Assembly: GCA_943788985.1 (NCBI GenBank)
Contig: CALSSJ010000017.1
Coordinates: forward strand, 128,001 to 192,000
Direction of reading: 5' to 3'
DNA: 64,000 nt
Source: an uncultured Lentisphaerales bacterium
GTDB lineage: Bacteria; Verrucomicrobiota; Lentisphaeria; JABSQK01; UBA12247
The position numbers were made by a program. The first letter of the stretch is position 1, and each line of letters opens with the position of its first letter. Shown here piece after piece: positions 21,001 through 24,000 of this stretch.

Positions 21001-24000
21001 ACAATACGCTGCTGAACGAACGTCAGATCACCGACAGGCTACGCGGTATCGAACGCCCAGAGGGTGGTCGCCACCTGGCAAACGAGCTGTCCTACGAAGT
21101 CGTGGATACGATGTCTTCCGTGTGCGTAAAACACTACCCGATGGTAGCACGCTATTACGAGCTGAAGCGTCGTCTCCTGGGCCTGGAAGAACTTACCCAT
21201 GTGGACCGTTACGCCCCGATCGCCGACAGTCGCAAAGAGATCGCCTACGAAGATGCAAAGCAGCTGGTCTGTGACTCATTCCTGGCCTTCTCCCCGGAGA
21301 TGCACGAGCTGGTGTTGCCGTTCTTCGAGCAGGACTGGATTGATGCCGAATTGAAACCCGGCAAGCAGGGCGGCGCCTTCTGTGCCGGCGTGACACCTGA
21401 TCTGCATCCCTATATCCTAATGAACTACACCGGCAAGCCGCGCGACGTCACCACGCTGGCGCACGAACTGGGGCATGGCATTCATGACCGCTTGGCAGCG
21501 GGCAACCACATGCTGGACTATTACCCCGTCCTCCCGCTTGCGGAGACCGCAAGCACATTCGCCGAGATGCTGGTCTTTGAGCAGTTGAAGCAGAGTCTCA
21601 CCGACCCAGCTGAGCGCCGCGCGCTGCTGTGCGGGAAACTCGAGGATAGCTTCGCCACCATATTCCGACAGGTCGCCATGTTTCGTTTCGAGCAGCAGGC
21701 GCACGCACTGCGACGCGAGCAGGGTGAGCAAACGACCGAGGCGTATAACGCACTCTGGCAGAGCTGTATGCAGGAAATGTTCGGGGACAGCGTTAAGCTT
21801 GGCGACGAGCATGCCTGGTGGTGGCTCTATATTCCGCACATCTATCGCTCCCCGTTCTACGTCTATGCCTATGCTTTTGGGGAGTTGCTGGTCCTATCAC
21901 TCTACGCCCGTTACAAGGAGCAAGGTGCCTCATTTATCCCGTCTTTCTTCGAGCTTCTCGCGGCGGGCGGCAGCGAAAAACCAGAAGATCTTCTAAAACG
22001 ACTGGATATTGACGTTTCCGACAAAACCTTCTGGGCGGGTGGTTGCTCTGTTCTTGCGGCGACGTTAGAGGAACTAGAAGCATTGTGCTGACTTATGAAT
22101 TGCCCAAGTTGCCAATCTCTAATTGCTCTCAAACAGGTAGTATGCCTAAATTGTGGCTACAATACCGCAACTGGTGCCGTACCTGCGCCCCAGCAGGATG
22201 CGGTACCAGATTGGAAAGCAAAACAGGAGTCGATGCGCGCGAAAACCAGACGCCAAATCCAGATCGCCGGTCTGATTGTCGTTGTCGTTGGCGTACTTGG
22301 CGGCTTCCTGACCGTCTCCTCCTATAAAGGGATACAGGCCCCCAATCAGGCCGAGCACTACCTGACGATCGAGACCCAGCAACTCAGCCCTCTCGCCGTC
22401 AAGGTCTTCACAGAGAATCTCAGCAATCGCATCACGATTCTGAATTCGCTTTACTACGAAGAGAAGTACGCCGAGGCGGACAAGGAAATCGCCACAATCA
22501 TGCAGCTGTTCGCACGCCTCAAGAAGGATGGCTATGAGGCAGCTGAGGCCCATGGCTACCCGACGGTCAGGCTGTGGCTAGAGGCCGAGGAGCACCGCAT
22601 GAAGCAAGCTCTCACAAAGCGTTACGACGAACTGGTCAAGCCCTTGGCCGACTACAAGACCCATGACCGGAAGGATATCGATTCTTTCATATCTAGTGTG
22701 GGTCGGCACTGGGAGATGCAGCAGCGTTTTGAACGCGACTCGCCCCGCATCGACCGGTCAAGGGCAAAACATGTCAGCGGGCATTTTCGCCTGGCCTACG
22801 AAGGGGAGGAGTCTCCCTGTTTCGGAGCGGGCAGCAAAGATCAGACGCGCAGAACGATCATGGAGCCGCTCGAACGGAACATCGGAAAACTGGCTGCGCT
22901 TCCTAGATTGCGCCACCTTCCCTTCGGCCCGATAGAAGAACGGGCAACGTCAGTGTCACTCATTGTTACGCTACGAATGGTCGATGCCGAGAACTCAAAG
23001 CTCTCTTGTCGATTCCACAGCCATATCCATGAGAAGACGAATTGGCCCGGCAAGTATCGGAACGGGTGGAATGCAAAATGGGTAGGTTATGCCTCTGACT
23101 TCAAGAAAAACGAAGACGGCGAGCGCAGCGCCTTCGGCTGGACTGGTGGAGACGAGGTCTACCATCACAAAACCTCTCTGATGGCAGAGGAACTAGAAAA
23201 AGCGTTTCCCCATTTCGTGGCATACTGAAATAGCCGAGGCCCTCGCGGCCGCCCCCTACGCAGCAAGCTACTGCGAGGAGAATGCCTGGCACCAGTTGTC
23301 TCGACTGCCCGACGCATCGTATTGGGCGGTGATCGTCAGCAACACCGGTCGTTGTATCCCCTATTTTGCACAGCGCAGCGCAGCCGTCGGTGATCCGGTT
23401 TTCTGGGACTACCACGTCTGGCTCCTGGCTGAGCACGAGGACGAGCTTTATGCGTTGGATCTGGACAGTCGGTTGCCCACGCCAACGCCGCTGACGCTGT
23501 ATCTGGACGCCAGCTTTCCGGAGTATCCAACCTGGCCAAAAGCGTACTGGCCGTGGTTCCGTCCCATCCGGCGTGATCAGTATCTCGCGGAGTTCGCAAG
23601 TGACAGGCGCCACATGCGTGATGGCGAGCGCTGGCACGCCCCTCCCCCACCTTGGCCCTGCATCGGCAACGGACATATCCTCGATGCCTGGCGAGAAATC
23701 CCAGGCGTTGCGCTCCCTGGCAAGGTCCTCACGGTGGACGAATTGATCGAATATCTAACAGCCAGCAGGTAATTTCGAATGTCCAAGGAAAGACGAACCA
23801 CACGGAAGTCGCAATCTTGATTCCAATGTTAACTGGAAATTCCATGTTGGCTGTTGGATATTCAATGACTCCGAGGTCTGGCTCGCAGTTTTTATATGGA
23901 ATAGTAGGGTTCCGCTCTTCCTGCCCCGCCAACCGTCACGGCACCGCATGACCACATACATCATTCGCAGACTCTTGCTGATGATTCCAACGTTGATTGG

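Follow-up and report, generated by a model that had tools for sequence, protein, structure and literature searches.

An apparently intact NTAQ1-family amidase gene without a canonical start codon before its catalytic cysteine, and its possible place in a bacterial N-degron route

A 64,000-nucleotide stretch of DNA from an uncultured Lentisphaerales bacterium (GenBank assembly GCA_943788985.1, contig CALSSJ010000017.1, positions 128,001 to 192,000; hereafter, the window) contains what family membership, active-site residues and modeled fold indicate to be a real gene for an N-terminal glutamine (Nt-Gln) amidase, referred to here as Ntaq1 (Table 1). The best-supported reading, to which we assign a probability of roughly 45%, is that its product opens a bacterial Leu/N-degron route of three steps in the cytoplasm. 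Being an NTAQ1-family cysteine amidase, it would hydrolyze the side-chain amide of an N-terminal Gln with a free alpha-amino group, yielding Nt-Glu. Gln-initiated fragments released by endoproteolysis would be deamidated to Nt-Glu in this way, the Bpt encoded in the same genome would then attach Leu to the Nt-Glu, and ClpS would finally bind the new Nt-Leu and pass the protein to ClpAP.

Table 1. Coordinates of the Ntaq1 locus, counted from the first nucleotide of the window.
Feature	Position	Strand	Basis
pepF-like M3-family oligoendopeptidase gene, 3 nt upstream of P0002	20325..22091	+	Peptidase_M3 149.8 bits; TIGR02290 606.6 bits (cut-off 561.7)
Orphan ORF P0002, 377 aa	22095..23228	+	No Pfam or NCBIfam family
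Ntaq1 open frame (P0001), 191 codons	23197..23772	+	PF09764, human NTAQ1 match, AlphaFold/Foldseek
ATT, likeliest start; would give a 186-aa protein with Cys at residue 21	23212..23214	+	Alignment with P0004; inference
ATA, alternative near-cognate start; Cys would be residue 15	23230..23232	+	Inference
Catalytic Cys codon TGC (Cys26 of the open frame = human Cys28), in YCEEN	23272..23274	+	phmmer and family alignment
Truncated 158-aa ORF lacking the catalytic Cys, from the first canonical start, TTG	23296..23772	+	ORF call, gene-caller version
Catalytic His codon CAC (His73 = human His81), in WDYHV	23413..23415	+	phmmer and family alignment
Catalytic Asp codon GAT (Asp88 = human Asp97), in DLD	23458..23460	+	phmmer and family alignment

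The P0001 frame is bounded by an in-frame TAG (23194-23196) on the 5' side and a TAA (23770-23772) on the 3' side. Pfam family PF09764 matched P0001 with 128.9 bits (cut-off 27), residues 21-170 aligning to model positions 1-165 of 184, and a search of the whole genome with the same model returned this locus at 128.7 bits (C17:151257-151706, counted along the whole contig). A phmmer search of the PDB retrieved human NTAQ1 (hNTAQ1; 4w79_A, E = 2.4e-24, query residues 17-160 on chain residues 19-170), with the YCEEN, WDYHV and DLD motifs of P0001 in alignment. The available text of PMC4214742 gives the hNTAQ1 triad as Cys28-His81-Asp97, and that of PMC11168063 describes how the enzyme grips the alpha-amino group and backbone of its substrate via Glu29, Asp79, Tyr80, His148 and Met149. 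All five of these latter residues have counterparts in P0001 (Glu27, Asp71, Tyr72, His139 and Met140). The triad and the five substrate-contacting positions were either invariant or conserved to at least 90% across an alignment of 27 bacterial sequences, and P0001 carried the consensus residue at 26 of the 26 most conserved columns, thus showing no sign of decay.

Structure prediction pointed in the same direction. The AlphaFold model (pLDDT 93.3, pTM 0.90), which has a predicted N-terminal helix at residues 7-18, shows the three-layer alpha-beta-alpha fold of hNTAQ1 and superimposed in Foldseek on 15 hNTAQ1 entries with TM scores of 0.82-0.85 and an rmsd of 1.8-2.0 Å over 182 columns, while the next-best fold reached a TM score of only 0.42. 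Sequence, triad, substrate residues and fold together mark P0001 as a genuine, apparently intact NTAQ1-family enzyme, as had been claimed in the initial annotation, which described a full-length homolog with its Cys-His-Asp triad; its predicted activity would be the deamidation of N-terminal Gln. Public records label proteins of this family 'hypothetical protein', and NCBIfam holds no model for it. A search of the ESM Atlas, limited to clusters with 50 or more members and thus of little weight, placed large chordate NTAQ1 clusters nearest and yielded neither a large bacterial cluster nor a structure record.

In animals and plants, NTAQ1 turns Nt-Gln into Nt-Glu and thereby earmarks proteins for breakdown. 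Compared with known systems, P0001 most resembles human and mouse NTAQ1 (PDB 4W79, 3C9Q, 6KGJ and the entries beginning 8JJ to 8JK), with which it shares the Pfam family, the triad, the five residues holding the substrate N-terminus, the fold (TM 0.84) and 32-33% identity in the structural alignment. It differs in being bacterial, in its shorter N-terminus and in the missing canonical start codon. Moreover, whereas NTAQ1 works with ATE1 and UBR ligases, the putative partners of P0001 are the Leu-transferase Bpt and ClpS/ClpAP. Yeast NTA1 and metazoan NTAN1 likewise convert a tertiary into a secondary residue, the role proposed here, but are unrelated in sequence to the NTAQ1 family; for human NTAN1 and NTAQ1, the available text of PMC4214742 reports 13.1% identity. 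Protein-glutaminases from Chryseobacterium and Flavobacterium and the transglutaminase-like cysteine proteases (LapG, catalytic domain of SseI) share with Ntaq1 a Cys-His-Asp triad and, distantly, a papain/transglutaminase-like core, but align at TM scores of 0.27-0.42 and 10-16% identity, and their targets are internal Gln residues or peptide bonds instead of a free N-terminal Gln.

The gene escaped correct annotation at its 5' end. Gene callers lose the catalytic Cys because the first canonical start, TTG 23296, lies downstream of the Cys codon, and a 147-aa version (P0003) is recorded in the protein index. Between the upstream stop and the Cys codon, no in-frame ATG, GTG or TTG occurs, and the only near-cognate codons are ATT 23212 and ATA 23230. 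Both points agree with the initial annotation, according to which the gene caller had removed about 33 N-terminal codons including the Cys and no canonical start preceded it. In contrast, a canonical start before the Cys was found at 8/8 relatives' loci. We consider ATT 23212 the most likely start codon from sequence comparison: it coincides in the alignment with Met1 of P0004, the closest homolog, whose Cys is also residue 21, and the predicted N-terminal helix of P0001 begins just past it. ATA 23230, located 2 nt past the stop of the upstream ORF P0002, is the less likely alternative. Across 172 family members, the position of the Cys has its mode at 13 and usually ranges from 7 to 29. No Shine-Dalgarno-like sequence was found at the usual distance from either codon. 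Translation table 11 lists AUU and AUA among its initiators, and a weak start can suffice where ribosomes re-initiate behind an overlapping ORF. Translation would probably be coupled to the overlapping upstream ORF, within a pepF-P0002-Ntaq1 unit.

Contigs from three DNA runs, each belonging to an independent study, spanned at least positions 23185-23664 with 0 differences and 0 gaps. As these contigs are identical at the start region, an assembly error is ruled out there, and with it the assembly indel that had been offered earlier as one explanation for the missing start. A contig from an RNA library matched positions 23119-23296 exactly; positions 22702-23109 had no cover among RNA-library contigs, a gap from which we draw no conclusion. 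The host is a marine bacterium.

The immediate surroundings are those previously described, namely pepF, an ORF without known family and two ABC permease genes. The pepF-like gene is probably the first gene of one transcription unit with P0002. The latter combines an N-terminal Cys-x2-Cys...Cys-x2-Cys motif with one hydrophobic stretch and is read in a different frame from Ntaq1; the two frames overlap by 32 nt (23197-23228), making translational coupling possible. Searches with P0002 gave no Pfam or NCBIfam match and no homolog in 14/14 other genomes of the order, and we rejected it as a known partner, since it has neither a family nor a relative in the order and is unlike the N-terminal extensions of fused Ntaq1 forms. 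Direct repeats of 13 bp flank it, a hint that the 5' end may have been rearranged. The two peptide-type ABC permease genes downstream of Ntaq1 probably form a separate unit, as they are preceded by a 175-nt gap with a dispersed promoter-like motif. An Rfam search of positions 23700-24000 returned only a sub-threshold miRNA model (22.9 versus 50 bits), which we took as chance.

We clustered 2,784 ORFs around 86 Ntaq1 loci in an all-against-all comparison. Bpt, ClpS or Aat was found beside Ntaq1 in none of these loci, and none of the 85 other loci had pepF, P0002, the TPR gene or the permeases, so that the pepF/permease context is unique to this genome. A conserved operon partner was rejected: neighbors were lineage-specific, with none shared across lineages. 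An antisense shadow ORF of Ntaq1 itself appeared in 51 loci of the clustering. Genes for gamma-glutamyl transpeptidase (GGT) were present near Ntaq1 at 5/86 loci, comprising one locus in Chromatiaceae and the four relatives, all of one genus, in which GGT had already been noted beside Ntaq1 (L006, L008, L009 and L010). At four myxobacterial loci, an FHA-domain gene lies directly upstream of Ntaq1, and Ser/Thr kinase genes lie near it at four. Among 12 long forms of the protein, three are fused to a low-molecular-weight (LMW) phosphotyrosine phosphatase and one to a PrmA-like methyltransferase. We counted these fusions with protein-modifying enzymes in favor of protein substrates rather than free peptides.

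All downstream parts of the proposed route were detected in the genome by profile searches, as the initial annotation had listed them (Bpt, Aat, ClpS-ClpA and ClpP). Bpt matched NF002346 with 197.7 bits (cut-off 170), ATE_C with 101-103 bits and ATE_N with 58.9 bits; ClpS scored 112.7 bits against PF02617 and 113.9 bits against NF000672 (cut-off 112). The ORF directly downstream of ClpS is ClpA, covering positions 4-491 of 734 in TIGR02639, for which the whole-protein cut-off is inapplicable because the examined locus ends within the ORF. Aat is present, and ClpP was matched twice. The earlier statement that NTAN1 is missing stands insofar as PF14736 had no match in the genome; the model matched none of the control genomes either. 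The genome, which is 83.6% complete, also gave no match for pyroglutamyl peptidase (PF01470). Complex prediction for Bpt and Ntaq1 (alignments A3 and A1) gave a score of 0.02 and a mark of 0.32, which counts neither for nor against binding. In Vibrio vulnificus, Bpt leucylates Nt-Asp/Glu and the product goes on to ClpS-ClpAP, a route known only for the Bpt of that species (available text of bioRxiv 10.1101/2021.07.26.453911, citing Graciet 2006). The present genome resembles this branch in having Bpt, Aat, ClpS, ClpA and ClpP, and the Nt-Glu substrate described there in the available text would be the putative product of Ntaq1. The Bpt found here would share this Leu specificity, and a hand-over from Ntaq1 to Bpt and on to ClpS would follow the proposed order.

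Ntaq1 turned out to be far more widespread than initially assumed. The figure of only 28 proteins reflected a limit of the word index, as an exhaustive profile search returned 2,959 representative clusters at E <= 1e-3, of which 1,116 reached E <= 1e-30. Describing the gene as rare and 'eukaryote-type' was therefore an overstatement: more than 1,000 strongly matching 50% clusters score best against a bacterial profile, and carriers fall into several bacterial lineages. The species genomes carrying Ntaq1 numbered 90 and represented six or more bacterial lineages, including Myxococcota, Chromatiaceae, Spirochaetes, Planctomycetota, Desulfocapsa and others; cultured carriers are Halochromatium salexigens DSM 4395, H. 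glycolicum DSM 11080, Lamprocystis purpurea DSM 4197 and Thiohalocapsa sp. ML1. Within the class, the earlier counts were reproduced, with PF09764 over its cut-off in 10/351 Lentisphaeria genomes, 7/14 other genomes of the order and 0/14 controls. P0001 has the lowest score of the nine full-length matches in the class (128.7 versus 144-161 bits), and the Ntaq1 sequence of one relative (G019) is a fragment containing an in-frame TAG, which shows that the gene is sometimes lost in this group.

Carriers are nested among genomes with Bpt. In Lentisphaeria, ATE_C was detected in 31/351 genomes, all ten Ntaq1 carriers among them, as previously counted; this corresponds to 10/10 carriers versus 21/341 other genomes (one-sided Fisher p = 6.5e-12). 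The Myxococcota class sample behaved similarly (6/6 versus 16/95, p = 5.9e-5), and the two carriers in the spirochaete sample both had ATE_C (2/2 versus 57/149, p = 0.15), whereas GGT, used as a control family in the Myxococcota sample, gave 6/6 carriers versus 65/95 others (p = 0.11; all tests one-sided). Since related genomes are not independent of each other, these p values overstate the significance. Inside the order, nesting is uninformative, as Bpt is nearly universal there (14/15 genomes), a point on which the initial annotation was right. Bpt is also far commoner than Ntaq1 (31 versus 10 genomes in Lentisphaeria, 59 versus 2 in spirochaetes, 22 versus 6 in Myxococcota) and thus does not need it. 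Among 80 carriers from other lineages, 68 had ATE_C; in the remaining 12, neither ATE_C nor ATE_N was detected. ClpS was found in 10 of these 12 and missed in two, so genome incompleteness may explain part of the missing Bpt. The co-occurrence may in part reflect shared ancestry or large genomes. E. coli, in which N-end-rule reporters of the X-beta-galactosidase type are usually run, gave no match to ATE_C or PF09764 in the control searches.

Overall, the three-step cascade proposed in the initial annotation is partly supported by the amidase family, the full set of downstream parts and the nesting in Bpt genomes, but receives no help from genomic linkage (0/86 loci). The missing canonical start and Shine-Dalgarno sequence, the 12/80 carriers without detectable Bpt and an oligoendopeptidase unit that fits peptide catabolism likewise count against it. 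The last of these leads to peptide salvage, which the initial annotation had raised as a peptide-trimming rival and which we regard as unlikely. Ntaq1 would here convert Nt-Gln to Nt-Glu on short peptides, either made by the oligoendopeptidase or imported, thereby blocking pyroglutamate cyclization and keeping aminopeptidases in play, unrelated to regulated proteolysis. The local gene order (a pepF-like gene and an orphan ORF at 3-nt or overlapping spacing before Ntaq1, two peptide-type permeases after it), the undetected pyroglutamyl peptidase, the GGT neighbors in one genus and one Chromatiaceae locus, and contacts of hNTAQ1 with short Gln-peptides through the backbone only (available text of PMC4214742 and PMC11168063) all speak for such a role. 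This context exists, but it is not conserved (0/85 for pepF, P0002, permeases and TPR gene; 5/86 for GGT), so the rival loses weight; the permeases probably belong to another unit, and the nesting of carriers in Bpt genomes, a contrast that GGT does not show, is left unexplained. The same nesting would also go unexplained under a non-degradative editing of N-termini, in which deamidation would alter the charge or activity of processed proteins, possibly linked to phospho-signaling, and would not feed Bpt and ClpS. The phosphatase (3/12) and methyltransferase (1/12) fusions, the myxobacterial FHA and kinase neighbors and the 12 carriers without detectable Bpt fit this idea, but as none of these partners is found at the locus in the window and each is confined to particular lineages (at most 10/86 loci), we hold it to be quite unlikely.

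Two further explanations concern this copy rather than the family. The gene could be silent or freshly decaying, loss of an ATG leaving either a Cys-less product (from TTG 23296 or GTG 23329) or none. The lack of ATG, GTG or TTG before the Cys compared with 8/8 relatives, the absence of a convincing ribosome-binding site, the lowest family score of the class, the broken G019 copy and the repeats around P0002 would agree with recent decay. Yet the 33 codons before TTG 23296 contain no stop and specify YCEENAW as well as the conserved N-terminal helix, all highly conserved columns are intact, ATT sits exactly where the nearest homolog starts and the region is found in an RNA library; with AUU and AUA available as initiators and re-initiation tolerant of weak starts, decay seems very unlikely. 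Alternatively, the amidase might be made as a C-terminal extension of P0002, by a +1 shift on CCCC 23208-23211 within the overlap that would produce a membrane-anchored fusion. The sequence there (T-TTC-CCC-A / TTT-CCC-CAT) would let tRNA-Pro re-pair in the +1 frame, and N-terminally extended family members are known (for example, L090). However, P0002 does not resemble any N-terminal extension among the 12 long forms (best E = 2.2) and is absent from 14/14 relatives, neither a stop nor a slow codon comes after the slippery stretch, and homology to stand-alone proteins begins exactly at the ATT, rendering a frameshift fusion extremely improbable.

The Leu/N-degron reading would add a tier to the bacterial pathway. 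In the available text of bioRxiv 10.1101/2021.07.26.453911 and PMC4214742, the bacterial N-degron pathway is described with primary and secondary residues only (in the bioRxiv text, N_d2 = Arg, Lys, Met, Asp and Glu) and the amidase tier as eukaryotic; an amidase tier upstream of a bacterial Bpt was not described in the literature searched. Taken jointly across lineages, the data raise the tentative and on balance doubtful idea that at least six of them (Lentisphaerae; Myxococcota; Chromatiaceae and other Gammaproteobacteria; Spirochaetes; Planctomycetota; Desulfobacterota) run Nt-Gln -> Nt-Glu -> Leu-Glu -> ClpS/ClpAP and that the eukaryotic NTAQ1-ATE1 module descends from a bacterial Ntaq1-Bpt pair. 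The truncated gene call illustrates how a catalytic residue may go unnoticed when its gene begins at a non-canonical codon. If the route operates as proposed, Gln would join the bacterial N-degron code and more protease-generated fragments could be cleared; the pairing of NTAQ1 with ATE1 would then have a bacterial root, and the amidase tier would not be a eukaryotic invention.

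The product of the Ntaq1 open frame, P0001, is a new member of an already known family. Pfam model PF09764 (Nt_Gln_amidase) matched it over model positions 1-165 of 184 with 128.9 bits (cut-off 27), and its residues 17-160 aligned to positions 19-170 of human NTAQ1 (hNTAQ1) chains with an E value of 2.4e-24; YCEEN, WDYHV and DLD were identical in the pairwise alignment. All figures of the initial annotation on the frame, the family match, the human E value and the triad motifs were reproduced. The available text of PMC4214742 gives Cys28, His81 and Asp97 as the human catalytic triad, and because the three motifs align identically, its members correspond to Cys26, His73 and Asp88 in the open frame. 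Five further human residues, Glu29, Asp79, Tyr80, His148 and Met149, hold the alpha-amino group and backbone of the substrate, according to the accessible part of PMC11168063; all five are kept in P0001 (Glu27, Asp71, Tyr72, His139, Met140) and, in 27 aligned bacterial homologues, show no variation or a conservation of at least 90%. An AlphaFold2 model computed from this 27-sequence alignment (mean pLDDT 93.3, pTM 0.90) superposed on 15 hNTAQ1 entries with TM-scores of 0.82-0.85 and an r.m.s.d. of 1.8-2.0 A over ~182 columns, the second-best fold being protein-glutaminase at TM 0.42. Judged by homology that reaches the substrate-binding residues, P0001 is very probably an Nt-Gln amidase.

Coordinates of the Ntaq1 frame and the two genes upstream of it in the window
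Feature	Position	Strand	Remark
pepF-like M3 oligoendopeptidase	20325-22091	+	first in the order pepF-like, P0002, Ntaq1
P0002	22095-23228	+	orphan ORF, 377 aa, directly upstream of Ntaq1
Ntaq1 open frame (P0001)	23197-23772	+	191 codons, begins after TAG 23194-23196

Canonical starts occur only 3' of the Cys codon (23272-23274), so gene callers cut off the nucleophile: the earliest in-frame ATG, GTG or TTG is TTG 23296 (158 aa), 24 nt 3' of that codon, and a version of 147 aa (P0003) is found in the protein index. A canonical start precedes the Cys in eight of eight relatives' loci. To check for the assembly indel that had been considered as the cause of the absent start, we placed public contigs on positions 22600-24100. 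Contigs from DNA runs X6, X8 and X9, which stem from three separate studies, cover 23185-23664 or more with no other letter and no gap, and the indel explanation falls away; as these independent contigs agree without differences, the start region is real and stable in the population. A metatranscriptome contig (run X17) matches 23119-23296 exactly and joins the end of P0002 to the 5' end of the frame, with DNA carry-over possible. The single difference among the placed runs, a T>C change at 23756 in a contig of the X17 RNA library, would replace Leu187 by Pro near the C-terminus and is most likely a strain variant.

Near-cognate codons 5' of the Cys are limited to ATT (23212) and ATA (23230). 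In the alignment the ATT falls precisely on Met1 of P0004, the closest homologue (45-47% identity); it would put the Cys at residue 21, as in P0004, and is directly followed by a confidently modelled N-terminal helix (open-frame residues 7-18). Starting at the ATA places the Cys at residue 15; the mode among 172 family members is 13. Both codons lack a Shine-Dalgarno-like sequence at the usual distance, a feature that is present for several neighbouring genes. P0002 ends 17 nt past the ATT and 2 nt short of the ATA, and the mechanism we prefer, put forward as a proposal, is that Ntaq1 would be translated by re-initiation coupled to P0002. On balance, we lean towards translation of this copy from one of the two codons. 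An exact 13-bp direct repeat, AGAGGAACTAGAA, flanks P0002 at 22067-22079 (15 nt 5' of its ATG at 22095) and 23186-23198 (13 nt 5' of the candidate ATT); these are its only copies in the 64-kb window, with ~0.02 expected by chance, and it may have been left by an insertion or rearrangement in which Ntaq1 lost its original start, or may serve both frames as a translation signal.

P0002 itself has a CxxC...CxxC motif at its N-terminus and a single hydrophobic segment, and matched no Pfam or NCBIfam family. On the 3' side of Ntaq1, a 175-nt gap is followed by the genes of two ABC permeases and of a TPR protein. Within this gap, 82 nt 5' of the permease ATG, lies a 32-nt motif (23834-23865) that, with up to 3 mismatches allowed, recurs nine times in the genome, against 0 for a reversed-pattern control; TTGGACAT/TTGGCAAT usually comes before a copy, the copies often stand shortly upstream of an ORF, and metagenome contigs heap up on 23834-23865. 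The motif probably serves as a promoter or regulatory element specific to the lineage.

The initial annotation had presented the gene as a rare, 'eukaryote-type' one with only 28 related proteins. That number could be obtained again, yet it fails as a measure of rarity, being an effect of the word index. A profile built from 27 sequences and read against all 1.84 billion representatives found 2,959 proteins at E<=1e-3, with 2,214 remaining at E<=1e-10 and 1,116 at E<=1e-30. A pattern scan with one genome per species yielded 90 relatives, 80 of them retained; carriers comprise Myxococcota (Sandaracinaceae, Nannocystaceae, Polyangiaceae, Kofleriaceae), Chromatiaceae including cultured Halochromatium, Lamprocystis and Thiohalocapsa strains, other Gammaproteobacteria, Spirochaetes, Planctomycetota, Desulfocapsa, a Bdellovibrio-labelled MAG and Lentisphaerae. 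Ntaq1 is thus no rare intruder of eukaryotic type; it forms a sizeable bacterial branch, lacking annotation, of a family that is known from eukaryotes. Where named at all, the bacterial proteins are 'hypothetical protein' in their source annotation, NCBIfam holds no model for them, and the large named clusters of the ESM Atlas are chordate NTAQ1. In one Lentisphaeria relative (L013, G019:C228:91243-91434), a fragment that covers model positions 70-133 and contains a TAG in frame is likely a pseudogene, and Ntaq1 would therefore be undergoing loss in part of the group.

The downstream parts of an N-degron pathway are present in the organism's own genome, which is 83.6% complete: Bpt with both ATE_N and ATE_C (NCBIfam NF002346, 197.7 bits against a cut-off of 170), ClpS directly followed by ClpA, Aat, and two matches to ClpP. 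An NTAN1-type model found no match there and was silent in all control genomes too, and control searches of E. coli matched neither PF09764 nor ATE_C. In the relative G001, two adjoining ATE_C matches (contig C583, 8760-9083 and 9172-9576) may represent a split, duplicated or frameshifted Bpt. Across 351 Lentisphaeria genomes, we confirmed earlier counts of 10 with PF09764 over the cut-off, all nested within the 31 with ATE_C (10/10 versus 21/341). Bpt is nearly universal in the order itself (14/15), so the nesting is uninformative there and the contrast stems from the remainder of the class. In a sample of 101 genomes from a Myxococcota class, 6 had Ntaq1 and 22 had ATE_C (6/6 carriers versus 16/95 others), and GGT, used as a control on the same genomes, was present in 71 and in 6/6 carriers and gave no contrast; in a spirochaete class (n=151; ATE_C in 59), both Ntaq1 carriers had ATE_C. 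One-sided Fisher values of 6.5e-12 (Lentisphaeria), 5.9e-5 (Myxococcota), 0.15 (spirochaete) and 0.11 (GGT control) are overstated, because related genomes are no independent observations and two of the samples have a carrier at their centre (2.7e-4 and 0.39 without the centres). From the pattern scan, 68/80 carriers had ATE_C (45/50 and 23/30).

The best-supported single reading of the cellular role, to which we assign a probability of about 0.45, is that Ntaq1 would convert Nt-Gln to Nt-Glu and thereby supply Bpt and then ClpS/ClpAP; it draws on two points: in unrelated phyla the carriers are nested among Bpt genomes, and the product, Nt-Glu, fits the substrate of Bpt. The accessible text of bioRxiv 10.1101/2021.07.26.453911, citing Graciet 2006, describes leucylation of Nt-Asp/Glu by Vibrio vulnificus Bpt. 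Against strict dependence, 12 of the 80 carriers showed neither ATE_C nor ATE_N, ClpS being present in 10 of them; Myxococcota-type MAGs of unstated completeness make up 10 of the 12, and part of the absence may reflect incomplete genomes, since ClpS itself was missed in two. Bpt, ClpS or Aat lay within ~4.5 kb of Ntaq1 in none of 86 loci (2,784 ORFs). Peptide salvage together with the probably co-transcribed oligopeptidase is unlikely: across the 85 other loci, no homologue of the pepF-like gene, P0002, the permeases or the TPR gene stands beside Ntaq1. Neighbours are instead lineage-specific, with a NamZ-type exo-N-acetylmuramidase gene lying upstream, on the same strand, in 10 loci of mostly gammaproteobacterial origin (L032, L039, L050, L055, L067, L068, L074, L077, L079, L088), an aminotransferase/homoserine-dehydrogenase block in 9 Thiohalocapsa-type loci, GGT in 5, Ser/Thr kinases in 4, and an FHA-domain gene immediately upstream in 4 myxobacterial loci (L019, L022, L040, L064). 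Twelve long forms among the best 150 profile matches add a LMW phosphotyrosine phosphatase (3), a UDP-glucose pyrophosphorylase, a PrmA-like methyltransferase or DUF309 (1 each), or a part without assigned domain (6); the proteins fused to a named partner are P0077, P0090, P0172, P0163, P0083 and P0175. One locus (L090) has a 743-aa open frame ending in the Ntaq1 domain.

These partners are a weak hint that the substrates are proteins and not free peptides, and they would also be compatible with a non-degradative role linked to signalling; such N-terminal editing is, beside the Bpt- and ClpS-feeding role, more doubtful than salvage. Slightly less probable again is that the copy in this genome is silent or decaying, a reading that takes up the missing canonical start and has the intact conserved columns against it. 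A +1 frameshift from P0002 on a CCCC run, fusing it to Ntaq1, is conceivable and very improbable: P0002 has no homologue among the 14 other genomes of the order, so comparative support is absent, and it is unlike the N-terminal extensions of fused members.

Tertiary destabilising residues and Nt-amidases are described for eukaryotic pathways only in the available portions of the sources, PMC4214742 among them, and the accessible text of bioRxiv 10.1101/2021.07.26.453911 lists Arg, Lys, Met, Asp and Glu as bacterial secondary destabilising residues. The full-text literature, as far as available, yielded neither a bacterial NTAQ1 nor a bacterial amidase tier, and an earlier mention, for example in the founding paper (Wang 2009), is still possible. 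We propose that an amidase-Bpt-ClpS pathway would constitute a new form of the known N-degron pathway.
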